From positions 1-61,706 of the forward strand of contig CANQQR010000004.1 of assembly GCA_947626035.1 (NCBI GenBank): a DNA stretch of 61,706 nucleotides, written 5' to 3'. The DNA comes from an uncultured Bacilli bacterium. GTDB taxonomy: Bacteria; Bacillota_I; Bacilli_A; RF39; UBA660. Of the stretch, positions 13,361 to 40,243 are shown in pieces (positions within the stretch are counted from its first letter, which is position 1; every line of letters begins with the position of its first letter). The position numbers and the translations under genes were made by a program. The notes under the pieces were generated by a model that did not search any database, was not told the origin of the DNA, and worked only from the letters and a program-made list of their open reading frames with translations.

Positions 13361-15475
13361 TTAATCTTTCCTCTCTAACAATTCATCTGCTTTACTAATC
13401 AAATCATGTACTATAATAGACTTACTAACCTCAAGTCTAGTATCAGCATACTCTTTAATCCTATCAATATAACCTGAATCAATTGGCAAATCATTAAGCA
13501 AAATATACTCATCCTTTAAATTACTATAAAACACATTATTAGTAAGAACATTACCATTAGGAAACACAACAATTCTCTCATTACTAGAGAAAACATCGCT
13601 TCCTAATGCATAATTATAATCTAAATTAAACATATTAGCAATAGTAGGAAACACATCCCACATACCCATAACATCCTTAATCTCGCCTTGTAACTTCTTA
13701 TCACTAGTCCAAATAATCAAAGGTGTATTCTTTAAAAGCTCATACTTATAATTATCAATATCAACATAAGTAGGATCACTCTCATCCTTTAAATCATCAG
13801 TATAAGCATCATAATTATATAAAAGTCTCAAATTCTTCTTACCTAACTTACTCTCATGATCTCCATAAATAACAAACACAGTATCTTCATCCAAATTATT
13901 CTCCATAACCATATCAAAGAACTCACCCAAAGCTTCATCAGCATAATGTGCACTCTTCAAATAATTACCCATTTGAGTACCCTCAATATAAGGAACAGTC
14001 ACACTCTCCATAATCTCATTACCATTTTCATCAAACTCTCCTGTACCCTTATCATAAGTAATACTAAAATCCAAATCTCCATACTTACTAACATCATCAA
14101 ACGGACTATGATTACTAAGAGTAATAATAGTACCCATAAAATTCTCATGATCTGCCTTAATATCAGTCAAAATAGGAATAATTTGCTTAAAAAATGACTT
14201 ATCAGAAAGACCTAAACCAACCCAATCTGGGTCACTCTTATCTTTAGGAACAAGATACCTGTCCTTTGCATAAAACTCTTGATAACCCAAAGTCTTATAC
14301 ATAGTTAACCTATTCCAATAAGTAGCCTCATTAGCATGCATACTAAACGTATAATAACCTTTCTTATTAAATTGTTGTTGAAGTGTCTCATAAGTTCTAT
14401 CATAAAAATTAATAAAAACTGTACCACTACTACTTGGAAGAAGACCAGTACTCAAAGTAAACTCAGTATCACTACTAGTACCAACACTAATTTGTGGATA
14501 AAAAGAAGAAAAATACAATCCCTCTTTACTAATCCTATTCAAATTAGGTGTAATAACAGTACCATTAATCTCCAAATCAATCAAATAATTCTGAATAGAC
14601 TCAGCATGAATAAAAATAACATTCTTACCCTCAAAAATATTAGTATACTGATTACTCTCCTTACTAACCTCTCTATTATTATAAAAATCCCTAAAAGTCT
14701 TAACCGCACTATCATAACCAAACATAGAACTAACACTAGGCTCTAAACTCTGAACCAAATCATTAAAAGTATACAAATATAACCCAAACCTTTGCACATT
14801 ATAATCCCTATTCCATTGCTTAATTAACCTACTAGCCTCACTAGGAACCAAAGTAACAATAACAAAAGCAATAATAACAACACCAACAATAATATTACTA
14901 GCAAACATCCTCTTACCCTTTTCATGCTTACCAACCTCAAAATAATAATTCTTCTTACTCAAAACACCATTAACAATAATCATAATTATAGGCGCAATAA
15001 TATAAATAAAATAAATAAGCTCAAGTCTACTAGTAACAGAATCACTAACCTCGCCCAACATAGACAAAGTAGCAAGCAAACTAACACTAACAAAACTCAT
15101 ATAAAAAGTATAATAAATATGATTTATAATACACAAAAATGTATAAAAAACACTAAGACCAAAAAAATACTTAAACTGATTTTTAGGCTTAAACAAATAC
15201 CCAAAACTACCAAGCAAAACACACATAGTAAAATCACATACAAACGCTTTAATATCAAATGCTTCGCCAACAGTAAGAAGCCTTAACAAAAAACCAATAA
15301 AAATAGAAGTACACAAATAAGTCAAAAACAAAACATTAGTAGAAAAATACTTCTTAAAACTTCTTAAAAATTTCCCTAACTTAACTTTAAAATTCTTCTT
15401 ACTAAAAATATCTTTAAATTTAACCTTAATATTCTTCATTTTATCTAACATTTTTCTATACCTCGACACATACAT
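13361..15475 (-). CDS. LTA synthase family protein (sulfatase domain)
   Basis: 704 aa. N-terminal polytopic region plus extracellular sulfatase-like domain (FIHAESIQN, GTSSDTEFT, YGDHES). Confidence 0.8.
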   Translation of the reverse strand: MYVSRYRKMLDKMKNIKVKFKDIFSKKNFKVKLGKFLRSFKKYFSTNVLFLTYLCTSIFIGFLLRLLTVGEAFDIKAFVCDFTMCVLLGSFGYLFKPKNQFKYFFGLSVFYTFLCIINHIYYTFYMSFVSVSLLATLSMLGEVSDSVTSRLELIYFIYIIAPIIMIIVNGVLSKKNYYFEVGKHEKGKRMFASNIIVGVVIIAFVIVTLVPSEASRLIKQWNRDYNVQRFGLYLYTFNDLVQSLEPSVSSMFGYDSAVKTFRDFYNNREVSKESNQYTNIFEGKNVIFIHAESIQNYLIDLEINGTVITPNLNRISKEGLYFSSFYPQISVGTSSDTEFTLSTGLLPSSSGTVFINFYDRTYETLQQQFNKKGYYTFSMHANEATYWNRLTMYKTLGYQEFYAKDRYLVPKDKSDPDWVGLGLSDKSFFKQIIPILTDIKADHENFMGTIITLSNHSPFDDVSKYGDLDFSITYDKGTGEFDENGNEIMESVTVPYIEGTQMGNYLKSAHYADEALGEFFDMVMENNLDEDTVFVIYGDHESKLGKKNLRLLYNYDAYTDDLKDESDPTYVDIDNYKYELLKNTPLIIWTSDKKLQGEIKDVMGMWDVFPTIANMFNLDYNYALGSDVFSSNERIVVFPNGNVLTNNVFYSNLKDEYILLNDLPIDSGYIDRIKEYADTRLEVSKSIIVHDLISKADELLERKD

Positions 15476-15504: not shown

Positions 15505-15548
15505 AAATAAAATAAAAAGACAAAAATATCTTTACATATTCCTGTCTT
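15505..15548 (-). terminator. rho-independent terminator closing the paralog locus
   Basis: Coding strand AAGACAGGAATAT-GUAAAG-AUAUUUUUGUCUU (13 pairs including two G-U) followed by UUUAUUUUAUUU. Confidence 0.7.
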
Positions 15549-16137
15549 AAGGTAACTTAGTTGTACCCTCTTTATAAGTATCATTATAATATAATGTACT
15601 ACCAGTAGTATCAACATAAAGTGTTCCATCAAACTTCTTACCTTGACTCTCATTTTGATTAACACTAGTTTCAGGCAATTCCATAGTAAGACTATAAGTA
15701 ATAACTGTCTCACTCTCACTTGGTGGAAAACTCTTATCAACTATCACAATATCTTTTTGTTCTCCACTACTATCTAACTCTATCTCTCCAACTGCACCAG
15801 AACCCTCAGTCTCACTAGTAACACTAGCAACAAGCCCTGGCATAGTATTAGTATACATTAACTTAATCTTAATAGGCCTTGTAGCATCACTAGCACTACT
15901 AGTAATAGTAAACGTCTTAGTCTCTTTCCAACTAGGCTCAATATTAGTTGCAGTCTTAAAATCAGCACCACCATCAAACTTAATAACACCAACATTAGCA
16001 CTACCAACATTAATAACAGGCTCGCCAGTAGTATTCATTTTAGCAGTAAAATAAGCGAAAGTAACACCAATAACCGTAACAATAACAGTCGCAATAGTCA
16101 ACACAACCAATATAATCTCATGCTTTCTACTCTTCAT
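15547..16137 (-). CDS. diverged TasA/camelysin-like secreted protein (paralog I)
   Basis: N-terminus MKSRKHEIILVVLTIATVIVTVIGVTFAYFTAKM (TFAYFT motif). Mature part carries EPSWKETKTFTIT and NESQGKKFDG, homologous to the PGW and QQG islands of the cassettes. Confidence 0.7.
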   Translation of the reverse strand: MKSRKHEIILVVLTIATVIVTVIGVTFAYFTAKMNTTGEPVINVGSANVGVIKFDGGADFKTATNIEPSWKETKTFTITSSASDATRPIKIKLMYTNTMPGLVASVTSETEGSGAVGEIELDSSGEQKDIVIVDKSFPPSESETVITYSLTMELPETSVNQNESQGKKFDGTLYVDTTGSTLYYNDTYKEGTTKLP

Positions 16138-16154
16138 AATAATTCCTTTCCAAC

Positions 16155-16760
16155 TTACAAATTAGGACTACCCTTAGCAATTATCTTACCCTCAAAAACC
16201 TTTCCTTGTAAATTATTTTGATTTTCTCCATTATCAAGAAATTTAACAGTCAATGTATATCTATGAGTAACACCGGTATTAATAGTACCAGTACCAATAC
16301 TAGAACTAGCACTAGGAACAATAAGTTCTCCAGGAATAGTAACCACCCTATTAGTATCACTTATAGGAACATTAACATCTCCTCTAAAACTAGTACTACT
16401 TAAAGTATAAACAAACGACTCATCATTAATAGTATTCTTATCAACATACCAATACAAAGTATAATCTCCAATAGCATTCTCAACTTGACTAACATTAGCA
16501 ATAGTAAACACTAACTCTTGACTCCAACCAGGTTCAACACTATCTGCATTAATATCATTCTCAGCATAAAAAGTAGTCATAATCTCTGAAACAGCTTGCA
16601 TACCAACCTCACCATTAGTATCATTACCAACAACACCAGAAAGCCAAAAAGCATAAGTAGTACCAACACTTACTGATATAAATGATAAAACAGAAACAAT
16701 AGCATAAATATAACTTCTAATAGAAAGCTTTAAATCATCTCTACTCTTTTTATCTTTCAT
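16155..16760 (-). CDS. diverged TasA/camelysin-like secreted protein (paralog H)
   Basis: Start moved to ATG 16760 (GGTGA SD): MKDKKSRDDL.., TM, GTTYAFWLSG. EPGWSQELVFTIAN and NNLQGKVFEG islands. Confidence 0.65.
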   Translation of the reverse strand: MKDKKSRDDLKLSIRSYIYAIVSVLSFISVSVGTTYAFWLSGVVGNDTNGEVGMQAVSEIMTTFYAENDINADSVEPGWSQELVFTIANVSQVENAIGDYTLYWYVDKNTINDESFVYTLSSTSFRGDVNVPISDTNRVVTIPGELIVPSASSSIGTGTINTGVTHRYTLTVKFLDNGENQNNLQGKVFEGKIIAKGSPNL

Positions 16761-16966
16761 ATAATCACCATATCTTACATATATTACTATATAATATAAT
16801 ACCAATAATTCCAAAAAAAAACAATACCAAAAGAAAAAAACACGCAAAAAATTAAATGACCCAATATCACTCTAAAAATAAAATAATAACCCCAAATAAC
16901 AAAAAACACACACTTCTACTTCCCCAAATAGTAAATTAACTATGTTCTTTCTTTCTCTTATCTCTT

Positions 16967-17617
16967 CTATTCTTCAAATGGATTTTTTTCTGTTCCTTGT
17001 GGGTTATCATTATTGTAGTAAATAGTATCGCCACTTGATAACTTACATGAAACTGTCGCTGCAATACTTGCTCCTTGTTGTTCATTTTGAGGAACTTCTG
17101 TTTCCTTGAAAGTTATTTTATATTTGAAGTTATGTACTAAATCACTTCCACTAGCATCTATTGTTCCAGTTGCTAATGGTATTGTTTGTGAGCCACCTGT
17201 AATCTTTACACCATCGCCATCTCCAGTGAATGCTTCATCAAGTTTAGCACCAGTTCCAGCAGTTGCAGTTACATACAAATCAGTAAAAGCAGTTTTTCCA
17301 TCGACACCTGAGTCAGCAGAAGCAGTATTTGAAGTAACTTCTAAATTACATACATAGTTAAATGTACTTTGACCCTTTGTTGCTGTTATAGTTACTGTTT
17401 GATCTTTACTGTCCCAACCTGGTAATATTTTAGTACCAGTTACAGCAGCAGTTTCATACTTAATTGTTCCTAGTTGTGCTGCTCCAACTTCTACATTTGC
17501 AGGATTACCTTGCATTGTTGTAGTGAAATATGCAAATGTAGCACCGATTATAGCAACTAAAAGTGTAGCAATTCCAATTACTGATAAGAATATAGTTTGC
17601 CCTCTATTATCTCCCGT
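16967..17617 (-). CDS. cassette G: full-length secreted-protein frame lacking a canonical start (ACG at 17615-17617)
   Basis: The frame is open from the TAA at 17648-17650 down to the stop at 16967. It encodes ..TGDNRGQTIFLSVIGIATLLVAIIGATFAYFTTTMQGNPANV... I found no in-frame ATG/GTG/TTG upstream of the internal Met used by the ORF track. Confidence 0.6.
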   Translation of the reverse strand, partial: TGDNRGQTIFLSVIGIATLLVAIIGATFAYFTTTMQGNPANVEVGAAQLGTIKYETAAVTGTKILPGWDSKDQTVTITATKGQSTFNYVCNLEVTSNTASADSGVDGKTAFTDLYVTATAGTGAKLDEAFTGDGDGVKITGGSQTIPLATGTIDASGSDLVHNFKYKITFKETEVPQNEQQGASIAATVSCKLSSGDTIYYNNDNPQGTEKNPFEE

Positions 17618-17678
17618 CTCCTCCTCCCCACACTCATAAATAGTAAATTAACTATGTTCTTTCTTTCTCTTATCTCTT
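17516..17678. repeat. inter-cassette junction repeat (F 3' tail + G leader)
   Basis: Contains the leader block and ataaatagtaaattaactatgttctttctttctcttatct. Recurs at 18237-18409, 18932-19113, 19606-19787 and 20286-20453, with partial copies at 16925-16966, 20955-21041, 21345-21406 and 21905-22006. Confidence 0.9.
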
Positions 17679-18338
17679 CTATTCTTCAAATGGATTTTTT
17701 TCTGTTCCAGTTTGATTTTCATTATTGTAATAAAGTTCGCCTTTACCTGTTAACTTACATGAAACTGTTGCTGCGATAGTTGCTCCTTGTTGTTTATCTT
17801 GAGACTCATTTTTATCTTTGAAAGATATTTTGTATTTGAAGTTATGTTCTAAATCACTTCCATTAGCATCTATTGTTCCAGTTGCTAATGGTATTGTTTG
17901 CACAGCGCTTGTACCGTCTATTTGCACACCATCTTCACTTGAAGTTATAGCATTATCAATTTTAGCACCAGTTCCAACAGTTGCAGTTACATACAAATCA
18001 GTAAAAGCAGTTTTTCCATCAACACCTGAGTCTTCAGAAGCAGTATTTGTAGATACAATTAAATCACATTCATATTCGAATGTACTTTGACCTTTTGTTG
18101 CTGTTATAGTTACTGTCTTATCTGTACTGTCCCAACCTGGAAATATATTAGTAGCTTCTGTAACAGGTTCAGCAGAATAAGAAATAGTTCCTAGTTGTGC
18201 TGCTCCAACATTTACATTTGCTGCTTTACCTTGCATTGTTGTAGTGAAATATGCAAATGTAGCACCGATTATAGCAACTAAAAGTGTAGCAATTCCAATT
18301 ACTGATAAGAATATAGTTTGCCCTCTATTATCTCTCGT
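17679..18338 (-). CDS. cassette F: full-length frame, ACG at 18336-18338
   Basis: Same leader. The mature region is closely related to cassette G (TVTITATKGQSTFxYxC.L, TAFTDLYVTAT, tail YYNNxNxxGTEKNPFEE). Confidence 0.6.
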   Translation of the reverse strand, partial: TRDNRGQTIFLSVIGIATLLVAIIGATFAYFTTTMQGKAANVNVGAAQLGTISYSAEPVTEATNIFPGWDSTDKTVTITATKGQSTFEYECDLIVSTNTASEDSGVDGKTAFTDLYVTATVGTGAKIDNAITSSEDGVQIDGTSAVQTIPLATGTIDANGSDLEHNFKYKISFKDKNESQDKQQGATIAATVSCKLTGKGELYYNNENQTGTEKNPFEE

Positions 18339-18409
18339 TTCTTCCTCTCCACACCCATAAATAGTAAATTAACTATGTTCTTTCTTTATTTATTTATTTT
18401 TGCTCGTTA
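18237..18409. repeat. inter-cassette junction repeat (E/F)
   Basis: See 17516-17678. The 3' element is partly diverged here (..ctttctttatttatttatttttgctcg). Confidence 0.85.
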
Positions 18410-19033
18410 TTAATGACTTTGTTCTGTGAAATGTTGTCCATCTTCTTCGCCAGATAGCTTACATGAAACTGTTGCAGCAATATTAGCTCCTTGTTGTTCA
18501 TTTTGAGACTTATTTGTATCTTTGAAAGTTAATTTATATGTGAAGTTATGTATTAAAGTAGTTCCATTAGCATCAATTGAACCAGTCGCTAATTTTATTG
18601 TTTGTGGTGCTTCTGTAGCTTCTATCTTTACCCCATCGCCTTGAGTTAATCCAGTTTCAACAGTTGCACCAGTTCCAGCAGTTGCAGTTACATATAAATC
18701 AGTAAAAGCAGTAGCTCCATCAACACCTTCAGCTGCAGCAGTATTTGAAGATACGACTAAATTACATTCATATTCAAATGTACCATTACCTTTAGTAGCA
18801 GTTATTGTTACTGTTTGATCTTTACTGTCCCAACCTGGAAATATATTAGAACCAGTTACAGCAGCAGCAGTAAAACTAATACTTCCTAATTGTGCAGCAT
18901 TCACAGTTACATCTTTTGCTTGTCCTTGCATTGTTGTAGTGAAATATGCAAATGTAGCACCGATTATAGCAACTAAAAGTGTAGCAATTCCAATTACTGA
19001 TAAGAATATAGTTTGCCCTCTATTATCTCCCGT
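18410..19033 (-). CDS. cassette E: full-length frame, ACG at 19031-19033
   Basis: Same leader. Mature region of the E/F/G subfamily with a unique C-terminal tail (..SGEEDGQHFTEQSH). Confidence 0.6.
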   Translation of the reverse strand, partial: TGDNRGQTIFLSVIGIATLLVAIIGATFAYFTTTMQGQAKDVTVNAAQLGSISFTAAAVTGSNIFPGWDSKDQTVTITATKGNGTFEYECNLVVSSNTAAAEGVDGATAFTDLYVTATAGTGATVETGLTQGDGVKIEATEAPQTIKLATGSIDANGTTLIHNFTYKLTFKDTNKSQNEQQGANIAATVSCKLSGEEDGQHFTEQSH

Positions 19034-19113
19034 CTCCTCCCCTCCACACCCATAAATAGTAAATTAACTATGTTCTTTCTTTCTCTTATCTCGTTTTGCT
19101 TATTATTGTTGGT
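18932..19113. repeat. inter-cassette junction repeat (D/E)
   Basis: See 17516-17678. Confidence 0.9.
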
Positions 19114-19707
19114 CTATTGACCTTTTTGTTGTGAATCTGTGTATTTTGCTTCGCCTGATAGCTTACATGTTACTTGTCCAGCAATGTTTCCACCTTGTTG
19201 CTCATTTTGTTCTTCATCATCTTTGAAAGCTAGTTTATAAGTAATTGTATGTATTGCTTGTTCTCCAGTTGTTTCTATAGTACCATGTGCTATTTTTAAT
19301 GTTTGAACACCTTCTGCTCCATCAGCTGAACTTATTTGTTTACCTTCGCCAGAAAAGCCATCTTCAATTGTAGCATTAGAAGACTCAGCACTAAAATACA
19401 AATCGGTAAATTTAGTATTTGCTGTCACTTCTAAATTACATTCATAATCAAATTTACCTGCACCACCTGCAGCAACAGTTATTGTTGCGGTTCCTGTCTT
19501 CTCCCAACCTGGAAATATATTAGAATCTGTTATTCCAGTTGCAGTATAAGTAATTGTAGGTAATGTTGCTGAACCAACATTAATATCGCCTTGAGTTCCT
19601 GTCATTGTTGTAGTGAAATATGCAAATGTAGCACCGATTATAGCAACTAAAAGTGTAGCAATTCCAATTACTGATAAGAATATAGTTTGCCCTCTATTAT
19701 CTCCCGT
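19114..19707 (-). CDS. cassette D: full-length frame, ACG at 19705-19707
   Basis: Same leader. The mature region is near-identical to cassette C over long stretches. Tail GEAKYTDSQQKGQ. Confidence 0.6.
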   Translation of the reverse strand, partial: TGDNRGQTIFLSVIGIATLLVAIIGATFAYFTTTMTGTQGDINVGSATLPTITYTATGITDSNIFPGWEKTGTATITVAAGGAGKFDYECNLEVTANTKFTDLYFSAESSNATIEDGFSGEGKQISSADGAEGVQTLKIAHGTIETTGEQAIHTITYKLAFKDDEEQNEQQGGNIAGQVTCKLSGEAKYTDSQQKGQ

Positions 19708-19787
19708 CTCCTCCCCTCCACACCCATAAATAGTAAATTAACTATGTTCTTTCTTTCTCTTATCTCGTTTTGCTTATTATTGTTGGT
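19606..19787. repeat. inter-cassette junction repeat (C/D)
   Basis: See 17516-17678. Confidence 0.9.
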
Positions 19788-20402
19788 CTATTGACCTTTT
19801 TGTTGTGAATCTGTGTATTTTGCTTCCCCAGATAACTTACATGTTACAGCACCAACAATACTACCGCCTTCTTGTGAAGTTTGAGGCTCATCTGTATCTT
19901 TAAAAGTTAGTTTATAAGTAATTGTATGTGTTGCTTCTGTTCCAGTTGTTTCTATAGTTCCGCTTGCTATTTTTAAAGTTTGAACGCCCTCTTCTCCGTC
20001 AGCAGAACTTATTTGTTTACCTTCGCCAGAAAAACCAGATTCAATTGTTGCATCAGAAGATTCAGCACTAAAATACAAATCAGTAAATTTAGTGTTTGTT
20101 GTTACTTCTAGACTACATTCATACTCAAATTTACCAGCACCACCTGCAGCAACTTTTATAGTCGCAGTTCCTGACTCAGACCAACCTGGAAATATATTTG
20201 TGCCAGTCAAAGCAGTTGCAGTATAACTAATTGCTGGTAATGTCGCAGCTCCAACATTAATACTACCTTTTTGAGTTTCTTGCATTGTTGTAGTGAAATA
20301 TGCAAATGTAGCACCGATTATAGCAACTAAAAGTGTAGCAATTCCAATTACTGATAAGAATATAGTTTGCCCTCTATTATCTCCTGTCTCCTCCTCCCAC
20401 AC
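19788..20402 (-). CDS. cassette C: in-frame GTG (20400-20402) but no SD; ACA at the homologous start position
   Basis: MWEEETGDNRGQTIFLSV... The purine tract upstream is 1 nt shorter than in D-G, which brings the GTG into frame. Confidence 0.6.
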   Translation of the reverse strand: MWEEETGDNRGQTIFLSVIGIATLLVAIIGATFAYFTTTMQETQKGSINVGAATLPAISYTATALTGTNIFPGWSESGTATIKVAAGGAGKFEYECSLEVTTNTKFTDLYFSAESSDATIESGFSGEGKQISSADGEEGVQTLKIASGTIETTGTEATHTITYKLTFKDTDEPQTSQEGGSIVGAVTCKLSGEAKYTDSQQKGQ

Positions 20403-20453
20403 CCATAAATAGTAAATTAACTATGTTCTTTCTTTCTCTTATCTTATTTCTCT
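20286..20453. repeat. inter-cassette junction repeat (B/C)
   Basis: See 17516-17678. Confidence 0.9.
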
Positions 20454-21125
20454 TTAGTCTCCACTTTGATTACTTTGTGTATAATGAGCCTCGCCTGACA
20501 ACTTGCATATTACTTGTGCTACAAGATTACCCTCTTGTTGGTCGTTTTGGTTATCATTATTATCTTCAAAATCAATTTTATATTTGAAGTTATGAGATAC
20601 ACTATCACCAGTTGTTGTAATAGTTCCGCTTGCTAATTTTATAGTTTGAACACCTTCTGCTCCATCAGCAGAACTTAATGTTTTAGCACTTTGAACACCA
20701 GTATCAATTTCAGCACCTGTTCCAGCTGTAACTGTTAACTTTAAGTCTTTAAATTTTTCATTAGTAGTTACTTCTAGATTACATTCATACTCGAATGTAC
20801 CTGCACCACCAGCAGCAACAGTTATAGTAGCTGTTTTGTCTTCACTTGTCCAACCAGGGTATATATTACTTGCAGTTATAGCCTCAGCAGTATAACTAAT
20901 TGCTGGTAATTTAGCAGAACCTACATTAATTTTACCTTGATTTTCTCCTGTCATTGTTGTAGTGAAATATGCAAATGTAGCACCGATTATAGCAACTAAA
21001 AGTGTAGCAATTCCAATTACTGATAAGAATATAGTTTGCCCTACCGCCGGAGGGTAGTAAGTAGTAAATAAAACATATAAACAACTTATCAACAAAGAAT
21101 TAATTAAAACTACATACACATCCAC
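20454..21125 (-). CDS. cassette B: conserved leader from GQTIF onward, replaced 5' end
   Basis: Upstream of GGGCAAACT the shared sequence is replaced by ..TACTACCCTCCGGCGGTA.., a GC-rich 16-mer. The only in-frame start is the distant GTG at 21125, so the true start is uncertain. Confidence 0.5.
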   Translation of the reverse strand: MDVYVVLINSLLISCLYVLFTTYYPPAVGQTIFLSVIGIATLLVAIIGATFAYFTTTMTGENQGKINVGSAKLPAISYTAEAITASNIYPGWTSEDKTATITVAAGGAGTFEYECNLEVTTNEKFKDLKLTVTAGTGAEIDTGVQSAKTLSSADGAEGVQTIKLASGTITTTGDSVSHNFKYKIDFEDNNDNQNDQQEGNLVAQVICKLSGEAHYTQSNQSGD

Positions 21126-21315
21126 AACCTAATAACAAAGTATATAAAATATAAAATAATATCAACAACATATACACAACTAAATTAATAAACAAGTAAC
21201 ATAATTTTTAAATCAAAAGAAATATAAAAAACTTCTAAAAAACATTAAATAACATAAATGATTTTTAGAAGTTAAAATGCCCATAAAAAAAAGACCATAA
21301 ATAATCTTTATTTAC

Positions 21316-21335
21316 AGTCTTAGTTAGATAAGACT
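21316..21335 (-). terminator. hairpin after cassette A (possible partial or bidirectional terminator)
   Basis: AGTCTTA-N6-TAAGACT, a perfect 7-bp stem. The T-run is immediate only on the plus strand. A second 11-bp inverted repeat sits at 21231-21272. Confidence 0.35.
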
Positions 21336-21406
21336 AACTTTTTTATAAATAGTAAATTAACTATGTTCTTTCTTTCTCTTATCTCGTTTTGCTTATTATT
21401 GTTGGT

Positions 21407-22006
21407 CTATTGACCTTTTTGTTGTGAATCTGTGTATTTTGCTTCCCCAGAAAGTTTGCAAGTTACTGTAGCTGCGATGTTTCCACCTTGTTGCTCGTTT
21501 TGCTCAATTTCAGTATCTTTGAAGTCTAGTTTGTAAGTAAATGTATGTGATGTAGCACTTCCTGTAGCTTCAATTGTTCCACTTGCTAATTTTATTTCTT
21601 GAACACCTTCTTCTCCGTCTTCTGAACTTATTGTCTTTGGACTTTGAACACCAGCATCAATAGTAGCACCTGTTCCAGCTGTAACAGTTAATTCTAAATC
21701 TTTAAACTTAGTATTAGATGTTACATTTAGAGTACATTCATAAGCAAATTTACCTTTACCACTGTCGTCAACAGATATAGTTGCTGTCTTTTCTCCACTA
21801 GACCATCCAGGGTATATATCACTTGCAGTTATCGAATCAGCAGAATATGTGATTTTTGGTAATGTTGCAGACCCAACACTGATATTACCTTGAGTTCCTG
21901 TCATTGTTGTAGTGAAATATGCAAATGTAGCACCGATTATAGCAACTAAAAGTGTAGCAATTCCAATTACTGATAAGAATATAGTTTGCCCTCTATTATC
22001 TCCCAT
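21407..22006 (-). CDS. cassette A: TasA/camelysin-like secreted protein, canonical expression copy
   Basis: AAAGGAGG-N9-ATG. MGDNRGQTIFLSVIGIATLLVAIIGATFAYFTTTM signal, 199 aa. Own promoter upstream. Confidence 0.85.
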   Translation of the reverse strand: MGDNRGQTIFLSVIGIATLLVAIIGATFAYFTTTMTGTQGNISVGSATLPKITYSADSITASDIYPGWSSGEKTATISVDDSGKGKFAYECTLNVTSNTKFKDLELTVTAGTGATIDAGVQSPKTISSEDGEEGVQEIKLASGTIEATGSATSHTFTYKLDFKDTEIEQNEQQGGNIAATVTCKLSGEAKYTDSQQKGQ

Positions 22007-22034
22007 AGTTCTTTACCTCCTTTACTATATACAA

Positions 22035-22114: not shown

Positions 22115-22156
22115 TACAAATATAACAAAGAGTGACTAATTGTTAGCCACTCTTTA
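22115..22156 (-). terminator. rho-independent terminator of the giant repeat-protein gene
   Basis: AAAGAGTGGCTAA-CAA-TTAGTCACTCTTT (13 pairs, one G-U) starting 6 nt after the stop, followed by GTTATATTTG. Confidence 0.7.
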
Positions 22157-22161
22157 TCACA

Positions 22162-25059
22162 TTATTCATTAACTTTAACTTGTAATCTTGTATAAAATAC
22201 CTTACCTTTATCAGCACTTTGGTCTTCATTAGTATTTTTAAATTCAAAAGTCAATTTATAAGTATGAGTTTCCCCAGCTTTAATAGTTACATCCTTAAGC
22301 ATCTCTAACCCATTGTCAGATGGGTAAGGAACTCTACCCTCATTTAAATCTACAATAGTTTCGTCATTTCTAGTAATACCATAATAAAGTCTATTCTTAA
22401 AATTAAACGTATTAACTATATCTGTCCAAATAATACTATAAGTAACATCAGTATCTCCCTCATTCTTAATAGTAAAATTCTTACTACCTTTCCATCCAGG
22501 CGCAATACTTTGGTCTTTAAGTTCAGTATCATCTAAGAAAGTTAAATTAAATGTATCTCCTTGACCAGTACCAATAACAACATCCTTTAAATCACTAGGT
22601 GCATTTTCTCCAGTCTCTATAGGGTACTTATCAACCTTACCATCTCTATCTGTATCAATATTTCCGTCAGGTGTTCCATCTCCATCTAAATCAACATTCA
22701 AATCAGGTTTACCATCTCCATCAATATCAACATTAACATCTGGTAATCCATCATTATTAGTATCACAATTCAAATCACACTTACCATCATTATTAGTATC
22801 TTGATTAGTTAAATTCTTATCTGGTTTACCATCTCCATTAGTATCAACATTAACATCAGGTACACCATCTTTATTCATATCTAAATTAGTATCAGGTTTA
22901 CCATCCTTATCATTATCAACATTAGTATCAGCCTTACCATCTCCATTAACATCAATATTAACATCAGGTGTTCCATCACTATCAGTATCGCAATTCAAAT
23001 CACACTTTCCGTCTCCATCCTTATCAACATTCAAATCAGGCTTTCCGTCTCCATCAGTATCTAAATTACTATCAACCCTACCATCATTATTATTATCACA
23101 GTTTAAATCACACTTTCCATCTCCATCTGTATCTTGATTAGCAGGATTATCATCAGGTCTACCATCTCCATTAATATCTATATTAGTATCAGGCCATCCA
23201 TCCTTATTAGTATCACAGTTTAAATCACACTTTCCATCTCCATTAGTATCTTGGTCAGTTAAATTCTTATCTGCTTTACCATCTCCATCAGTATCAACAT
23301 TAACATCAGGCTTACCATCCTTATCTAAATCCAAATTAGTATCAGGATTTCCATCTCCATTAGTATCACAATCTAAATCACACACACCATTACCATCAAT
23401 ATCAACATTCAAATCAGGAATACCATCTCCATTAGTATCACAATTAACGTCGCATACACCATCCCCATTAGTATCTTGATTACTCTTATTACTATCAGGA
23501 TTTCCATCTCCATTATTATCTAAATTAGTATCTGGTACACCATCCTTATTAGAATCAATATTAGTATCAGGTTTACCATCTTTATTAGTATCACAATTAT
23601 AGTCACAAATTCCATCATGATTAGTATCAACATTAGTATCAGGTTTACCATCTCTATCTAAATCTAAATTAGTATCAGGAATACCATCCCCATTATTATC
23701 ACAATTTAAATCACATACACCATCTTTATTAGTATCTTGGTCAGTTAAATTCTTATCTGGTTTACCATCTTTATTAACATCACAGTTAAAATCACACTTA
23801 CCATCTCCTGTAACATCAATATCAGTATCAACATTACCATCTTTATTATTATCACAATTTAAATCACACTTACCATTACCAGTAATATCAACATTAGTAT
23901 CAGGCCATCCATCTCCATTATTATCGCAATTCAAATCGCACTTACCATCTCCATCAGTATCTTGATTTAACTTATTCTTATCTGGCTTACCATCTCCATC
24001 CTTATCAACATTAACATCAGGATTACCATCCTTATTAATATCTAAATTAGTATCAGGATTACCATCTTTATTAGTATCACAATTTAAATCACACTTACCA
24101 TTACCACTAACATCAACATTAGTATCAGGCCATCCATCTCCATTAGTATCACAGTTAACATCACACTTACCGTCTCCATCAGTATCTTGATTTAACTTAT
24201 TCTTATCTGGCTTTCCATCTCCATCCTTATCAACATTAACATCAGGCTTACCATCTTTATTAATATCTAAATTAGTATCAGGTTTACCATCTCTATTAGT
24301 ATCACAATTTAAATCGCACTTTCCATCTCCATCTTTATCTACATTCAAATCAGGATTAGTCTCTCTACTATAATCTTTATTAAAAGAACCCTCTCCATAA
24401 TTATCTCCATTAGATAAATTCTTATCTGCTTTACCATCTCCATCAGTATCGCAGTTAACATCACACTTACCGTCTCCATTATTATCTACATTCAAATTAG
24501 GCTTCCTATCTCCTGTAGTATCACAATTCAAATCACAAATACCATCATTATCTGTATCTAAATTCAAATCTGGTATACCATCTCCATTAAAATCTAAATT
24601 AGTATCAGGCTTACCATCCTTATTAGTATCACAGTTAACATCACATACACCATCTTCATCATAATCTTGATTAATCAAATTCTTATCTGGCTTTCCATCT
24701 CCATCAGTATCTATATTAAAGAATGGAACCATAGTATCTCTATACCCAAGATTAATATCAGGTATACCATCATCATTAGTATCACAGTTAACATCACAAA
24801 TACCGTCTCCATCAGTATCAACATTCAAATCAGGCCATCCATCTCCATCAGTATCAATATTAAGCTTCAAATGTGCCTTTTGAAAATAATTCAAAACAGA
24901 CCAAGTAGACGCTATTGTTGCAAGCATAAAAAGCAACAATGCAAAAATAATCAAAATAACTCTCTTATTTTTCTCAGCCTTACTCTTAGGCTCCTCAAAA
25001 TAAAGCCCATCCTCTTCAATAATCTTTTTCTCTTCATCATTATAAGGCTCTTGTCTCAT
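22162..25059 (-). CDS. giant secreted/anchored Cys-rich calcium-binding repeat protein (thrombospondin type-3-like repeats) with C-terminal cassette-type beta-sandwich domain
   Basis: Start taken at ATG 25059 (AAGGTGA SD). N-terminal TM/signal ..ATIASTWSVLNYF. Dozens of DxDxDGxxDxN and CDxNCD units. The C-terminal ~160 aa carry APGWKGSKNFTIKN and DQSADKGKVF islands. Confidence 0.8.
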   Translation of the reverse strand: MRQEPYNDEEKKIIEEDGLYFEEPKSKAEKNKRVILIIFALLLFMLATIASTWSVLNYFQKAHLKLNIDTDGDGWPDLNVDTDGDGICDVNCDTNDDGIPDINLGYRDTMVPFFNIDTDGDGKPDKNLINQDYDEDGVCDVNCDTNKDGKPDTNLDFNGDGIPDLNLDTDNDGICDLNCDTTGDRKPNLNVDNNGDGKCDVNCDTDGDGKADKNLSNGDNYGEGSFNKDYSRETNPDLNVDKDGDGKCDLNCDTNRDGKPDTNLDINKDGKPDVNVDKDGDGKPDKNKLNQDTDGDGKCDVNCDTNGDGWPDTNVDVSGNGKCDLNCDTNKDGNPDTNLDINKDGNPDVNVDKDGDGKPDKNKLNQDTDGDGKCDLNCDNNGDGWPDTNVDITGNGKCDLNCDNNKDGNVDTDIDVTGDGKCDFNCDVNKDGKPDKNLTDQDTNKDGVCDLNCDNNGDGIPDTNLDLDRDGKPDTNVDTNHDGICDYNCDTNKDGKPDTNIDSNKDGVPDTNLDNNGDGNPDSNKSNQDTNGDGVCDVNCDTNGDGIPDLNVDIDGNGVCDLDCDTNGDGNPDTNLDLDKDGKPDVNVDTDGDGKADKNLTDQDTNGDGKCDLNCDTNKDGWPDTNIDINGDGRPDDNPANQDTDGDGKCDLNCDNNNDGRVDSNLDTDGDGKPDLNVDKDGDGKCDLNCDTDSDGTPDVNIDVNGDGKADTNVDNDKDGKPDTNLDMNKDGVPDVNVDTNGDGKPDKNLTNQDTNNDGKCDLNCDTNNDGLPDVNVDIDGDGKPDLNVDLDGDGTPDGNIDTDRDGKVDKYPIETGENAPSDLKDVVIGTGQGDTFNLTFLDDTELKDQSIAPGWKGSKNFTIKNEGDTDVTYSIIWTDIVNTFNFKNRLYYGITRNDETIVDLNEGRVPYPSDNGLEMLKDVTIKAGETHTYKLTFEFKNTNEDQSADKGKVFYTRLQVKVNE

Positions 25060-25331
25060 ACTATTCACCTTCCTATTATCTAATATAAATAATAACACAA
25101 TTAAATAACTAAAGCAAACAAAATAAAACTAAGATTTACTATTTTTAACTCTTTAATGAAGTAATAGGTATAACATACACCCCATCATCCCTCATATAAA
25201 CAGCATTTGTCATCCCACAAATCACACATACAAATTCACTTTTTTCATTTCCATTACCACACTTTTTTAATAAGATAAGATTTACCAGACACTGTCTAAC
25301 ATTTTTTAACTCATAAAAAATGAAACAAAAC

Positions 25332-26213
25332 TCACTTCTGTTTCACTTTATTAGCCTTAACTTTCTCCTCTAATTCCTTTAATTTAATAGTATTAGTCTT
25401 CTCAATTTGCTCCTCAACATTAGTATAATTAAGCCCAAGCCCTATAACAAACACAAATGCTAAAATATAAAACCAAATCATTAAAACCACTATAGTACTA
25501 AGTCCAGCATAATAAACATTATAATGTGCAATATTCCTTATAAAAAACGAATAAATAAAAGTTGCTAAAAACCAAAATATAGTCGTAAACAAAGTCCCCT
25601 TAATAACATACTTACTCTTAATCTTCTCATCAGGTGCTATCACATAAATAAGTTTAATAAAATAATAAATAACTAACACAGTAAGTGGAACATACAAAAT
25701 TGGGTATAACAAATCAATACTATCAACAACTATATTATCAAAACCAATAGTCATAAAGAAATTAATAAGCTGTCTACCAAAAACAGGAACAATAAGTAAG
25801 AAAGTAAACAACATAAATATAAGAATAGTAATCAAAAAAGCCTTTAATCTTCTCTTAATAACATTATTACTCTTAATATTAAAAACAGTATTAGATGCAA
25901 CTATAATAGCATCACTTCCATTACTTGCTATAAAAAACGCAACTACCAAATAAACCAAAAAAGGTAACGAAAAACTATTCTCAGTAAACATAGGCATAAT
26001 CAAATTCATAAGATCTTCACTAAAATTCTTTGAAATAAACTCAGTAATATAAGAAATAGAAAGATTAAAAGAAGTTGCTATTAATATTATAATAGAAATA
26101 ATAGGTACACAAGAAAGCACAAAATAATATGCTAAAGAACTAGGAAGCGTTAATAACTCAGGTCTTCTAATAACTTCAATTAAATTATTAACAAATTTCT
26201 TGAACTTATCCAT
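25332..26213 (-). CDS. YihY/BrkB-family membrane protein
   Basis: 293 aa. SSLAYYFVLSCVPIISIIIL and 6 TM segments, typical of the YihY family. Confidence 0.75.
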   Translation of the reverse strand: MDKFKKFVNNLIEVIRRPELLTLPSSLAYYFVLSCVPIISIIILIATSFNLSISYITEFISKNFSEDLMNLIMPMFTENSFSLPFLVYLVVAFFIASNGSDAIIVASNTVFNIKSNNVIKRRLKAFLITILIFMLFTFLLIVPVFGRQLINFFMTIGFDNIVVDSIDLLYPILYVPLTVLVIYYFIKLIYVIAPDEKIKSKYVIKGTLFTTIFWFLATFIYSFFIRNIAHYNVYYAGLSTIVVLMIWFYILAFVFVIGLGLNYTNVEEQIEKTNTIKLKELEEKVKANKVKQK

Positions 26214-26216
26214 ACA

Positions 26217-28229
26217 CTATTCCCCTTTATTTTTTCTCATCATAATTAACGCTTCATTAATTGCATCATCAATAGTAGTACTCTCACTAGTAATCAAAGA
26301 ATAACCTACACCTGCTCCATACTCATAAGGTAAACCCTTTAACTCTTTCATTAACTTATTAACATAAGTAACAACTTGTTTCTCTTCATACCCTACCATA
26401 TAAACCAAAAACTCATTTCCATCAGTTCTAACAATCTCAGTATTCTCCCTTTGAGTCTTAATCAAAATATTAGCAGCACTCTTAATTTGCCTATCTCCCT
26501 CTTCATGTCCTTTAGTATCATTAATAACTGCAATATCATTTAAATCAACAACCACAACAGCCTGAGGGTATATCTTATTACTCTCCCAATAACTTAAATT
26601 ATCATTCAAATAATTCCTATTCTTTAAATTAGTCATAACATCTAAATACATCATTTTATCTTCTTTTTTAATCTTCTTAGTAACCTTAACCTTCTTATTA
26701 AACTTAAACAAGAAGAAAGAAACTGCAAAAATAAGTGCTAAAATATATGTAATATTATTAAGAATAAATTGAATTAACAAACTATTAGAAGCATCAGTCA
26801 AAGTATTACTAATAGCCATATTATTAATAGTCTCACTACCCAAAGTACTTAAATAAAAATTAAACATATTATTTAAAATCTTATTCTCATTATTAAGTAA
26901 AAAACTATTACTATTATTAGTATAACCAATATACCTAATAACATAATCTTTTAAAGAAGAATTCTTATAATAATCATACACACTCTTCTCTGAAACAATA
27001 ATACTCTTCTCATTTATATTCTTAAATAACTCTTCAAAATTACTAAACACAGTAGCATTAATATTATTATTTTTAACATAAGAATATAAACTAGTATTAT
27101 TAATCATATAAACTTCATCATCTCTAATACTCTTTAAATTATTAACAGCAGTAACATTATCTTTATGACTAATAACAGCATACTCTATATTACCTAAACT
27201 ACTACTCTTAACATAATTAGAATTACTTAAATTATAATAATTTAAAACAATATCAACCTTTTTATTCTTAATAGCCTCATTTAACTCTTCAACACTCTTA
27301 TACTTAATATATTTATAAGTAACCCCAGTCATTTCTCCAAACTGAGTCAAATATTCGTCAGTTAAACCACTAAACCTCTTATTAACCTTACCCTCATATG
27401 GTAAATTATCAACATAACCTACTAATATATCAACACCAGTAATACTATCAATATCAAGTTCAGATAATCCACTAGTCTCATAATAAAGAGATAAATAACT
27501 ATCATTTAAACTCTCATAAAACTTACTTCCCCATTTATTAAAAAACTTCTCATAAATAACACTTAACTCACTATTACTATCTTTACTACTCAAAACATAA
27601 TGTGAATGAAGTCCCTCAATATGGTATAAAACATTTAAATCATTACTCATAATATCTTTTAAATACTTAAACATAGGTACAATAGCATACTTCAAAGAAC
27701 CATTAACATCACTAACTAAATCACTAAAACTATCATACTCTTTATACTCTAAACCATATTCATTTAAATAACCACTAACATAATCCTTATCACTCTTAAT
27801 AACACCAACAGTACTACTTCCTAAATTACCTAAATCAGAAATAAAAGTACTGTCTTTTCCTATCAAAACATAATGATCAGTATAAAACACTAAATCACTA
27901 CTACTAACATTATTCTTATTAACAAACTGATAATCAGCATTACTATTATTAACAGTAATATCAAAAGACAACCCAGTATCTTTCTCAAGTCCACTTAAAT
28001 AATCATAAAACACACCCTTACCATTACTACTAAACAAAGGTAAATTCCCTTCAACACTAACACCTATCGCACTATTAGTATTATCATTAATCCAATTTCT
28101 CTCACTAAAAGAATAATTATTCTTAGAATTATTAACATAATAAAGTATGCCAAACAAAACTAATATAAGTATCATCACTAAAGCCACAATCATCAATAAT
28201 TTTCTCTTTTGTCTCTTTCTTATCTTCAT
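26217..28229 (-). CDS. membrane sensor with extracellular solute-binding-like region and C-terminal GGDEF-type domain (motif DGNEF)
   Basis: N-terminal TM, ~450-aa extracytoplasmic part, second TM. Then TNLKNRNYLNDNL..VVVVDLNDIAVINDTKGHEEGDRQIK..RTDGNEFLVYM. Confidence 0.7.
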   Translation of the reverse strand: MKIRKRQKRKLLMIVALVMILILVLFGILYYVNNSKNNYSFSERNWINDNTNSAIGVSVEGNLPLFSSNGKGVFYDYLSGLEKDTGLSFDITVNNSNADYQFVNKNNVSSSDLVFYTDHYVLIGKDSTFISDLGNLGSSTVGVIKSDKDYVSGYLNEYGLEYKEYDSFSDLVSDVNGSLKYAIVPMFKYLKDIMSNDLNVLYHIEGLHSHYVLSSKDSNSELSVIYEKFFNKWGSKFYESLNDSYLSLYYETSGLSELDIDSITGVDILVGYVDNLPYEGKVNKRFSGLTDEYLTQFGEMTGVTYKYIKYKSVEELNEAIKNKKVDIVLNYYNLSNSNYVKSSSLGNIEYAVISHKDNVTAVNNLKSIRDDEVYMINNTSLYSYVKNNNINATVFSNFEELFKNINEKSIIVSEKSVYDYYKNSSLKDYVIRYIGYTNNSNSFLLNNENKILNNMFNFYLSTLGSETINNMAISNTLTDASNSLLIQFILNNITYILALIFAVSFFLFKFNKKVKVTKKIKKEDKMMYLDVMTNLKNRNYLNDNLSYWESNKIYPQAVVVVDLNDIAVINDTKGHEEGDRQIKSAANILIKTQRENTEIVRTDGNEFLVYMVGYEEKQVVTYVNKLMKELKGLPYEYGAGVGYSLITSESTTIDDAINEALIMMRKNKGE

Positions 28230-38410: not shown

Positions 38411-38629
38411 TCAAGAATTACTTAAACTTATCTGTATATCTTTTGTAAGAACATCTGAATAAGAAAAACTTTTAACAAAATTAACAGTACTAAAAGTAAA
38501 CAAACATGGATAAACCTTTAAAATTTCTCCCTCATAATACTCATACTTATTTCTTCCAACATTCACTTTAATCCTAACCCTTTTACCAATAATCTTCTCT
38601 AACTCATTCTTAATTTTCTCTATATTCAT
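38411..38629 (-). CDS. veg: Veg protein
   Basis: 72 aa. IKNELEKIIGKRVRIKVNVGRNKYEYYEGEILKVYPCLF..SFSYSDVLT. Synteny with yabG and rsmA. Confidence 0.85.
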   Translation of the reverse strand: MNIEKIKNELEKIIGKRVRIKVNVGRNKYEYYEGEILKVYPCLFTFSTVNFVKSFSYSDVLTKDIQISLSNS

Positions 38630-39399
38630 GCATCCTCATTTCTAGGGTAACCAACATACATAGTACCCTTACACTTTAATCCACCCATCCCATCATGTCC
38701 ATACTTAGTCTTAGACAAAAGATTAAGTAAATCAATATCTTTACTCCTATCTAACAAACTAAGTGACGTTGCAATAATCGCAGGATCCAAAGCATGAATA
38801 TTTATTCTCTTAGGACTAGAAGCAAAAGTAGCACCACTCTTTATAAGCTCTTCATAATTACTCTGACACGCTCCCGCAATTATAATAAGTTTATCACTTG
38901 ACTTCTCAAACTTCCTTGCAACACTAACAGCCTTACAAAAACTCTCACTATTCTTATAATCACTATTAGAGTTCTCCCTAGCCTTATGATAAGCATCATG
39001 TCCAGTAATAATCAAAATATCAGGGTTATACTGATTCAAAAACTTAGGTAGCTCTTTATAAATCTCACTTTCCTTAACACACTTACCATATGCTAAAACA
39101 TTATTCTTTTTATAAAAATCCATACACCTACTTAAATAAGACTTATCAGCATCAATATGTAACACTTTCCCAGGTAAATAAAAATACTCATTCCTATCTA
39201 AATTCAAATCAATAAGAGGACAAAAATCATCTTTCATCTTACCCCTATCACAAACAACCAAATCTTGAATAGGCGCATCAGCACTTAACCTAACAAAAGC
39301 ACCCTTTAAATAACAAACATTACCTATAACACCTGTAACCTCAAAAACAATATCATTTGAATAACTCTTCCTAGTAACATAATCCCCCGTGTTAATCAT
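38626..39399 (-). CDS. yabG: sporulation-specific peptidase YabG
   Basis: GDYVTRKSYSNDIVFEV..LKGAFVRLSADAPIQDL.., ILIITGHDAY. Start at ATG 39399 (AGGGGG SD) rather than the ORF-track 39483. Confidence 0.85.
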   Translation of the reverse strand: MINTGDYVTRKSYSNDIVFEVTGVIGNVCYLKGAFVRLSADAPIQDLVVCDRGKMKDDFCPLIDLNLDRNEYFYLPGKVLHIDADKSYLSRCMDFYKKNNVLAYGKCVKESEIYKELPKFLNQYNPDILIITGHDAYHKARENSNSDYKNSESFCKAVSVARKFEKSSDKLIIIAGACQSNYEELIKSGATFASSPKRINIHALDPAIIATSLSLLDRSKDIDLLNLLSKTKYGHDGMGGLKCKGTMYVGYPRNEDA

Positions 39400-39451
39400 A
39401 AAATAACCCCCTAAATAAATATATGAAAAACTAAATAAAACATGAAAAAAA

Positions 39452-40243
39452 CTAACTACATAAATAGTTAGCCACAAACACAAAATCCAAAACCGTCAAC
39501 TGTTCAGCCCTATAAGTCAAATCTTTCCCAATATTCCCTAATGCTTCACTTAACTTATCTAAATCATAACTACCCAAATTATTCCTTAAATTCTTTCTCT
39601 TATGCACAAAAGCATCCCTAACTAACTTAAAAAACAAATCTTCATCCTCTAAATAAAGCTTATCTTTTTTCCTAGTAAACTTAACCACAATACTATCAAC
39701 ATTAGGCTTAGGAACAAAAGAATTCCTACTAACATCAGTAACCTTAGTAATATCAAAATAATACTGTAAAAAAACAGACAAACTACTATAATCCTTAGTA
39801 TTAGGTAAAGCCTTAAACCTATTTCCAACTTCCTTTTGAACCATTATAATCATTTCATCAATACTAACCTCATTCATAACCTTATTTATAATAGGTGTAG
39901 TTATATAATAAGGTAAATTAGCAATCAAATGAACTTTCTTATACCTAAAATTAGACAAAATAAGCCCTAAATCAGCACTCAAAAAATCCCCAAAAACCAA
40001 AGTCAAATTATCATACTCTTTCTTAATCTCATTAAGTTTATCAGTAAGCCTACTATCTATCTCAAAAGAAATAACAGGCACACCTAAAAGAACTAATCTC
40101 TTAGTCAAACTTCCACTACCAGCACCAACCTCTATTATAAGAGAATCCTTTGTAATAGAAGATGCATTAATAATCTTATCTTTAATATTATTATCAATAA
40201 GAAAATTCTGTCCTAAACTTTTCTTAAAACTAAACTCACTCAT
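39452..40243 (-). CDS. rsmA: 16S rRNA (adenine1518/1519-N6)-dimethyltransferase
   Basis: FKKSLGQNFLIDNNI, IEVGAGSGSLT, NLPYYITTPI. Confidence 0.95.
   Translation of the reverse strand: MSEFSFKKSLGQNFLIDNNIKDKIINASSITKDSLIIEVGAGSGSLTKRLVLLGVPVISFEIDSRLTDKLNEIKKEYDNLTLVFGDFLSADLGLILSNFRYKKVHLIANLPYYITTPIINKVMNEVSIDEMIIMVQKEVGNRFKALPNTKDYSSLSVFLQYYFDITKVTDVSRNSFVPKPNVDSIVVKFTRKKDKLYLEDEDLFFKLVRDAFVHKRKNLRNNLGSYDLDKLSEALGNIGKDLTYRAEQLTVLDFVFVANYLCS

Follow-up and report, generated by a model that had tools for sequence, protein, structure and literature searches.

A 965-residue protein with a predicted calcium-loop array and a TasA-like C-terminal domain, encoded beside TasA-like subunit genes in an uncultured Bacilli bacterium

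Gene organisation and protein architecture

A 61,706 nt stretch of DNA from an uncultured gut Bacilli bacterium (contig CANQQR010000004.1, assembly GCA_947626035.1; hereafter the window) was analysed around one large gene, here called the giant gene. It is followed by nine tandem genes for TasA-like proteins (the cassette family). A first-pass annotation had placed the giant gene immediately before the expression cassette, and this was confirmed for the first cassette gene. The giant protein consists of four parts: a short N-terminus predicted to be cytoplasmic, a hydrophobic segment, a loop array and a predicted C-terminal beta-sandwich (Table 1).

The full open reading frame (ORF) spans 22162..25098 on the minus strand and yields a product of 965 amino acids (aa) if the ATG at 25059 is used. 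This ATG is the likely translation start, because a ribosome binding site (RBS; AGGAAGGTG) lies 6 nt upstream, homologues begin equivalently and the end coordinate of the first-pass annotation agrees. The hairpin at the stop codon has a folding energy of −24.2 kcal/mol (z −7.8), its 3′ side is rich in U, and none of 200 shuffles folded equally well. This backs the earlier claim that the gene has its own terminator. An ORF on the opposite strand (24667..25083, plus strand, 138 aa, rich in Ile, Ser and Asn) was rejected as a gene; it is a by-product of the repeat of the giant gene.

Table 1. Coordinates of the giant gene, its parts and the TasA-like genes that follow it
Feature	Position	Strand	Description and basis
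Giant gene	22162..25059	minus	965 aa; stop codon 22162-22164; start by RBS and homologue N-termini
Shine-Dalgarno sequence AGGAAGGTG	25066..25074	minus	6 nt before the ATG; read from the sequence
Cytoplasmic N-terminal segment (predicted), aa 1-33	24961..25059	minus	MRQEPYNDEEKKIIEEDGLYFEEPKSKAEKNKR; relatives' sequences
Single hydrophobic segment, aa 34-56	24892..24960	minus	Ends ...ATIASTWS/VLNYF; sequence
Calcium-loop array (predicted), aa 69-813	22621..24855	minus	58 units, 18 with a C8/C12 pair, 27% Asp; motif counts, repeat analysis
Linker and TasA-superfamily beta-sandwich (predicted), aa 814-965	22165..22620	minus	Confident core aa ~853-965; AF2, Foldseek, hhalign
Terminator-like hairpin	22119..22163	minus	21-bp stem; overlaps the stop codon of the giant gene
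First TasA-like major subunit gene	21407..22006	minus	ATG-bearing; presumed partner of the giant protein; ORF list, homology
Six more tandem major subunit paralogues	16967..21125	minus	Four without a canonical in-frame start; ORFs, alignment
Two divergent TasA-like minor subunit genes	15547..16847	minus	16155..16847 and 15547..16137; conserved in L001, L002, L012

C-terminal domain

The C-terminal ~160 aa of the giant protein had been described as a cassette-type domain, and homology of the last ~150 aa to the cassettes was found at several levels. The domain aligned with all nine downstream paralogues, with PGW, H and NQNxxQG motifs in common. BLASTP matched it to the protein encoded at 16155..16847, a minor subunit and its closest paralogue, with an E-value of 4e-9. 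An hhalign comparison of the alignment of the C-terminal family (A3) with that of the cassette family (A5) gave a probability of 98.9% (E 2.5e-17), a figure somewhat inflated by one window protein that sits in both alignments. The profile evidence for homology of the domain to the adjacent TasA-like subunits is solid.

The cassette family itself is assigned to a divergent branch of the Pfam family Peptidase_M73 (camelysin/TasA). Matches to Peptidase_M73 were found for 16 of its 41 members (best E 4e-7), and several have precomputed PF12389 matches. A3 was searched against 1.84 billion cluster representatives and matched 2128 clusters at E≤1e-3, a number that fell to 1053 at E≤1e-10. Three of ten sampled proteins from this search passed the Peptidase_M73 cut-off of 22.5 bits on their own stretch (40.2, 41.5 and 30.3 bits). 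In these proteins, the domain directly follows the signal peptide and precedes adhesin-like modules.

AlphaFold2 (AF2), run on a 24-sequence alignment, predicted a confident beta-sandwich for the C-terminal domain, with a predicted local distance difference test (pLDDT) score above 90 in the core. A Foldseek search of this model against the PDB returned TasA (5of2, 5of1) at ranks 7 and 10, with E ~8e-4 and TM 0.31-0.34. The beta-sandwich model is merely compatible with the TasA fold.

Predicted calcium-loop array

A tandem array of calcium-loop-like units of the DxDxDG type had been proposed for roughly 22700-24850, and such an array is real: 58 units were counted, with 52 Dx[DN]xDG motifs. 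In 1000 composition-matched shuffles, the mean of this motif was 2.9 and the maximum 9. The related pattern D.[DN].[DN]G..D occurred in 53 copies. The unit keeps a strict 12-residue phase (D1 x [DN]3 x D5 G6 x [P/C]8 D9 x N11 [LVI/C]12), with positions 1, 5, 6 and 9 nearly invariant. Eight of the 58 units were stretched to 15 residues (...KN(K)LxNQ), each followed by a Cys unit and thereby marking module boundaries. Two irregular inserts interrupt the array.

All 36 Cys residues of the giant protein lie within CD(L/V/F/Y)(N/D)CD pairs. The number of pairs is 18 and not the dozens stated earlier. Positions 8 and 12 were occupied either by C/C (18 of 18 Cys units) or by P/A/V and a hydrophobic residue, and there were no single-Cys units.

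Tandem Repeats Finder gave a base period of 36 nt and two higher-order periods, one of 225 nt or 75 aa (3.4 copies, 81% matches) and one of 486 nt or 162 aa (2.1 copies). Superrepeats therefore exist, as had been noted, at periods of 75 and 162 aa and not at the ~85 aa originally given. The DNA repeat copies were 60–85% identical to one another.

The repeats had also been called thrombospondin type 3 (TSP3)-like, but membership of that repeat family was not upheld. Pfam TSP_3 (PF02412) did not match the full giant protein at E≤1, nor segments of 48-265 aa at E≤10. Short repeat segments showed only sub-threshold matches to Notch LNR, FG-GAP and EF-hand at E≤10. None of the solved TSP or COMP chains was matched by phmmer or by a repeat-profile search of the PDB sequences. 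The best PDB sequence match to the repeats was to the loops of an EF-hand protein and remained sub-threshold (E 0.09); no significant PDB sequence match was obtained with the full giant protein, with the cassette profiles or with the repeat profile.

TSP3 repeats have longer units, a CxxC-type spacing and inter-repeat disulfides. What they have in common with the array are tandem, Asp-rich DxDxDG-type loops with Cys and no predicted regular secondary structure. In contrast, the period of the giant array is a strict 12-mer with CxxxC inside one unit. The giant repeats are best classed as predicted calcium loops of the general Dx[DN]xDG type, an established Ca2+-binding motif (PMC3123361), and are ‘TSP3-like’ in flavour only.

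Two further assignments were rejected as composition artefacts. The Pfam model Ntox24 reached 25 bits (cut-off 24), with no stretch passing alone, and the NCBIfam MSCRAMM models ClfA/Sdr matched SD-repeat regions only (ClfA 128 bits against a cut-off of 1150). No curated Pfam or NCBIfam model covering the giant family was found.

Disulfide-rich repeats of this kind had been considered unusual for a Gram-positive, but the repeat type is not unusual for Firmicutes: Cys-free 12-mers are common in Firmicutes surface proteins of the LPXTG, MucBP and Ig types. Such proteins (LPXTG, MucBP, Ig-like and Flg_new, with DxDGDGxPD(V/I)N(I/V)) resemble the giant protein in the 12-residue unit, with a local identity of up to 62%, and presumably in the function of the Ca2+ loops as a spacer. 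Unlike the giant protein, they combine ordinary signal peptides with adhesin domains and sortase anchors, and they are without the TasA-like C-terminal domain.

The Cys pair marks the difference. Among the best 120 matches to the giant protein, 56 share its C-terminal domain, and all 56 have CDxNCD pairs. Of the other 64 matches, nine have a Cys pair, eight of them being family-like by their N-terminus, and 55 have none. Because the pairs occur in 56 of 56 domain-sharing matches and in nine of 64 others, the Cys-bearing unit comes close to a family signature, and the Cys-bearing 12-mer alone appears nearly specific to the giant family.

The proportion of Cys units varies among relatives. The giant protein at L045:5522-7372 is made of nearly all Cys units (DTxGDGKCDLNC repeated), with 27 CxxxC, and so is the first giant protein at L013:4493-7384 (52 loops, 44 CxxxC). 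Many loci have two giants in tandem, one Cys-rich and one Cys-poor.

Conservation of the array

A collinear orthologue was found at locus L003, in an independent rabbit-gut metagenome-assembled genome (MAG) labelled ‘uncultured Bacilli bacterium’. The gene order at this locus (GGDEF, BrkB-like, giant, TasA-like genes) is that of the window. The orthologue has 947 aa, is 75% identical to the window protein and is collinear with it unit for unit save for the last unit. It has 19 Cys pairs, compared with 18 in the window. At one unit, DGKADTNV of the window corresponds to DNKCDINC of L003, a double change exactly at positions 8 and 12. This coupled substitution (A..V to C..C), together with the both-or-none rule for Cys, argues for an interaction of C8 and C12 within the unit, which may be a disulfide or a metal site.

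The ratio of non-synonymous to synonymous substitution rates (dN/dS; Nei-Gojobori, own script) between the two genes was 0.14 for the N-terminus, 0.15 for the repeats and 0.40 for the C-terminal domain, with dS ~0.9. Given the collinearity and the dN/dS of 0.15, the array is a conserved, selected feature and not an artefact or a fast-slipping tract. The first-pass annotation had named an assembly artefact as grounds for dropping its view of the repeat region; the collinear orthologue in an independent MAG and the degenerate DNA repeats argue otherwise. Hypervariability of the repeat number was likewise rejected, given the collinearity with the L003 orthologue and an identity of no more than 85% between DNA copies. 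The faster evolution of the C-terminal domain would fit co-evolution with the very variable major subunits.

N-terminal segment

The first 33 residues of the giant protein are acidic/basic and bear the motif IIEEDGLYFEEP; the IIEEDGLYF motif in this N-terminus is kept in close relatives. A basic cluster ahead of the hydrophobic segment suggests an N-in orientation. The hydrophobic segment itself could serve as a signal-anchor or be a signal peptide of the SipW type.

A [ST]-[YW]-[SA] motif follows the hydrophobic segment throughout the giant family. In the window protein, STWS/VLNYF resembles the cleavage site of TasA, which we take to be GGTWA/AFND; the papers cited below on TasA state only the start of the mature protein at residue 28. 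The cassette proteins scored 15-18.5 bits on TIGR04088 (SipW-type signal peptide), compared with a cut-off of 19, and can be regarded as carrying near-threshold SipW-type signal peptides. A Pfam scan of 30 of the other ORFs of the window identified housekeeping genes only, with no Dsb-type oxidoreductase and no signal peptidase.

Gene linkage in relatives

A metagenome scan with the cassette profile gave 80 loci, in which giant-like, TasA-like and SipW genes were mapped by hidden Markov models. A gene was considered giant-like when its product had at least five Dx[DN]xDG motifs and the A3 domain. A metagenome scan with the giant C-terminal domain alone found nothing, and a scan of genome contigs with the major subunit found three loci only.

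A giant-like gene lay upstream on the same strand in 24 of the 36 loci with at least 5 kb before the first TasA-like gene, so the co-occurrence with the cassette family on which the earlier proposal depended was found and is frequent. The gap between the giant and TasA-like genes was 93-172 nt in 16 loci (usually with two tandem giants), ~2.6 kb in seven and 5.7 kb in one. In L045, the one example of the 2.6-kb gap that was read, it holds a gene for a YfhO-like membrane protein on the opposite strand. The operon of giant, major, minor 1 and minor 2 recurs in the close relatives L001, L003 and L012. L001 and L012 have a second giant-like gene upstream, and L003 has four major paralogues. Of the 53 loci whose downstream sequence was long enough, 31 had SipW after the TasA-like genes.

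Two other arrangements were found. In type II loci (L005/L006, L008/L009, L010), genes for FtsE, FtsX, an M23 (PcsB-like) peptidase and usually a lipoprotein-like protein, which is absent in L010, are followed by the giant-like gene, with SipW directly after it (TIGR02228 89.5 bits, compared with a cut-off of 51.85). In L005, L008 and L010, no TasA-like gene was present within 6-8 kb of the giant-like and SipW genes. In type III loci (L007, L011), the giant-like gene is situated inside the dcw cluster (PBP2B, MraY, FtsW) and encodes a ~90-aa extra cytoplasmic domain.

Proposed role and alternatives

TasA polymerises by an N-terminal strand (residues 28-38, freed by SipW cleavage) that inserts into the next subunit, and TapA probably supplies the first donor strand of the fibre (PMC9674648, PMC10151520). 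TasA-superfamily loci of bacteria and archaea encode tip proteins, minor subunits and anchors, often beside cyclic di-GMP (c-di-GMP) enzymes, and assembly in the AbpX clade is triggered by Ca2+ (bioRxiv 10.64898/2026.01.04.697558; PMC9245690). The stalk, anchor or nucleator role suggested in the first-pass annotation agrees with this published work. A putative SipW-dependent fibre system of the TasA superfamily is common in uncultured gut Bacilli. On the sequence evidence, we lean modestly towards a cell-proximal, accessory place of the giant protein in such a donor-strand fibre, as its stalk, its anchor or a starter subunit like TapA.

The hydrophobic segment would insert N-in and then either stay as a membrane anchor or be cut by SipW after ...STWS, as in TapA and TasA. 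The ~745-aa array may bind about one Ca2+ per 12-mer through D1, [DN]3, D5, the backbone of residue 7 and D9. Outside the cell, it would form a stiff acidic spacer, long enough to span the wall, with the C8/C12 pairs as intra-unit clamps in the form of putative disulfides or metal ligands. The distal jellyroll would join the base of the fibre by putative donor-strand complementation with the major subunits, a pairing that could tether the fibre, start it or both. If the giant protein is cleaved, the new N-terminus VLNYFQK... could give the first donor strand in the manner of TapA, or even bridge two jellyrolls.

Several observations weigh against a role in the fibre. TIGR04088 did not match the N-terminus of the giant protein, and tblastn identified no SipW in the window. 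The giant protein gave no match to Peptidase_M73 directly at E≤1; the N-terminal third of that model is the signal peptide, which the giant C-terminal domain does not have. The structural likeness to TasA is weak and stands among generic jellyroll and CUB-type Foldseek matches. The AF2 model of a repeat segment (aa 277-456, 180 aa, ion-free, alignment from in-phase paralogous and homologous segments) had a pLDDT of 54 and was unusable, which leaves a rod-like shape of the array putative. No giant gene was within reach in 12 of the 36 loci with TasA-like genes. Moreover, because some members are far from TasA-like genes, the giant family may act independently of fibres.

The giant protein might accordingly be a stand-alone surface protein, a Ca2+-binding wall spacer or adhesin with the jellyroll as a ligand-binding head, which has ancestry, SipW route and regulation in common with the fibre genes and works outside the fibre. 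The type II loci, which pair a giant-like gene with SipW and have no TasA-like gene within 6-8 kb, and the position in the dcw cluster in type III loci point in this direction. So do the many proteins with the same jellyroll that bear adhesin-like modules (DUF6273, DUF285, Flg_new). The dN/dS of the C-terminal domain is also higher than that of the stalk (0.40 compared with 0.15), and an exposed binding head might evolve in this way. However, the subfamily of the window tightly adjoins TasA-like genes, with the 93-172 nt gaps in 16 loci, and among its paralogues the head domain is most similar to a fibre minor subunit. We consider a function outside the fibre unlikely, if still worth some weight.

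A self-polymerising or cross-linking matrix subunit appears improbable. Here, the VLNYFQK... strand, freed by SipW, would enter another jellyroll while the jellyroll of the same protein accepts a strand, and long Ca2+-responsive springs would result in a gel set by Ca2+. The motif after the hydrophobic segment does resemble the presumed TasA cleavage site and is followed by an aromatic pair (NYF, compared with AYF in the major subunit). SipW adjoins the giant gene in type II loci, which are without separate subunits, and giant genes often occur as a tandem pair (16 loci). A Ca2+-triggered hydrogel of the TasA superfamily, AbpX, has also been published (10.64898/2026.01.04.697558). On the other side, cleavage is putative, TIGR04088 gave no match, and N-terminal extensions of 35-100 aa before the hydrophobic segment are atypical of cleaved signal peptides. 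The segment after it resembles the major subunit donor strand in no more than two or three residues.

That the repeat region is an assembly artefact or a decaying pseudogene of low complexity, as the high repetitiveness, 27% Asp and 36-nt period might suggest, is refuted by the intact 2.9-kb frame, DNA copies just 60-85% identical, the unit order kept with substitutions in an independent MAG at a dN/dS of 0.15, and dozens of metagenomic relatives.

A further reading can be put forward as a long shot. The giant protein would be a Ca2+-gated ruler or spring of a kind not described before, whose ~58 EF-hand-like loops, stapled periodically by CxxxC, set the distance of the start of a TasA-type fibre from the membrane and place tethering or cross-linking under the control of extracellular Ca2+. 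The major subunit of this fibre would be swappable among the tandem, partly start-less cassettes, and together these would constitute an antigenically variable, Ca2+-responsive surface-fibre system of uncultured gut Bacilli.

Comparison with known fibre systems

TapA (YqxM; tapA-sipW-tasA of Bacillus subtilis) is an accessory protein, as proposed for the giant protein, and its gene likewise accompanies those for TasA-type subunits and SipW. Some relatives have the giant-like gene immediately before sipW, which is the position of tapA; this is not so in the window. TapA has a long signal peptide and is mature from residue 44 (PMC10151520), comparable to the ~54-aa N-terminal segment of the giant protein, and the proposed role in fibre start or anchoring via an N-terminal donor-like strand is similar (PMC9674648). 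In contrast, the domain of TapA is of the V-set Ig-like type instead of a TasA jellyroll, TapA is without a calcium-loop array, and cleavage of the giant protein is putative. TapA (6HQC) was not matched in the PDB sequence search with the giant protein, nor was it among the listed fold-search matches.

Anchors and tips of the TasA superfamily (LPXTG/SLH anchors of abpX loci, the Tafi membrane anchor, AbpB) resemble the giant protein in combining a fibre-type domain with a cell-attachment module beside the major subunit. Further likenesses are nearby c-di-GMP enzymes and a link of assembly to Ca2+ (bioRxiv 10.64898/2026.01.04.697558; PMC9245690). The putative attachment of the giant protein differs in relying on a transmembrane or signal segment at the N-terminus instead of LPXTG or SLH, and a ~58-unit Dx[DN]xDG spacer with CxxxC pairs was not found in those papers. 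Both the Dx[DN]xDG loop and proteins that assist or anchor TasA-type fibres are known. What was not found described in the literature searched is the two combined, a 12-mer stapled by Cys, and an array of this size and conservation.

TasA-type donor-strand fibres are a main scaffold of Gram-positive and archaeal biofilms. Their start and cell attachment are unsettled, and the anchor role of TapA is debated. The giant family is a recurrent, putatively accessory protein that joins a fibre-type domain to a membrane or signal segment by way of a long predicted spacer of Ca2+ loops, an architecture present in at least 24 metagenomic loci and in 56 protein clusters. It is a concrete candidate for the anchoring or nucleating step of the fibre, with a possible Ca2+ link like that of AbpX. 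The predicted 12-residue, Cys-stapled Ca2+ loop is a simple repeat of possible interest to protein engineers.

Subunit genes and neighbourhood

The seven tandem major paralogues (16900-22010, minus strand) encode an identical signal-peptide segment, GDNRGQTIFLSVIGIATLLVAIIGATFAYFTTTM. A Shine-Dalgarno sequence with an ATG is present only at the first copy (21407..22006). In four copies (19114-, 18410-, 17679- and 16967-), ACG replaces ATG, and no in-frame ATG, GTG or TTG is found upstream. In the copy at 19788..20402, a G/A-rich tract that differs in length by 1 nt brings a GTG into frame. Between the copies lies a 58-nt box that is conserved. The array looks like one expressed gene and putatively silent copies, as in variation of the gene-conversion type.

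In L002, L003 and L004 (rabbit-gut MAGs), the major subunits retain the same constant N-terminus and occur in three to four tandem copies, each complete from the start codon. The bodies are longer (253-294 aa), variable and very different. These major subunits appear to consist of a constant donor-strand region and a hypervariable body.

Two genes immediately precede the giant gene (25332-28229, minus strand). They encode a BrkB/YihY-family membrane protein and a diguanylate cyclase of the GGDEF type, which has an SBP_bac_3-like region in the periplasm. The pair is syntenic in L003 (957-3851), and the GGDEF gene is two genes upstream of the giant gene in both. Its position recalls the c-di-GMP enzymes reported near TasA-superfamily loci.

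The fibre operon is followed by an LtaS-type lipoteichoic acid synthase (Sulfatase domain), both in the window (13361-15475, minus strand) and in L002 (7513-9594). Together with the YfhO-like protein in L045, this hints at a link to teichoic acids. Further away, ParA/ParB, YchF, a YabG sporulation peptidase and a SleB-like hydrolase are encoded in 1421-6678 and 38626-40857. These genes point to a chromosomal region near the origin, in a walled Firmicute that forms spores and has 23-35% G+C.

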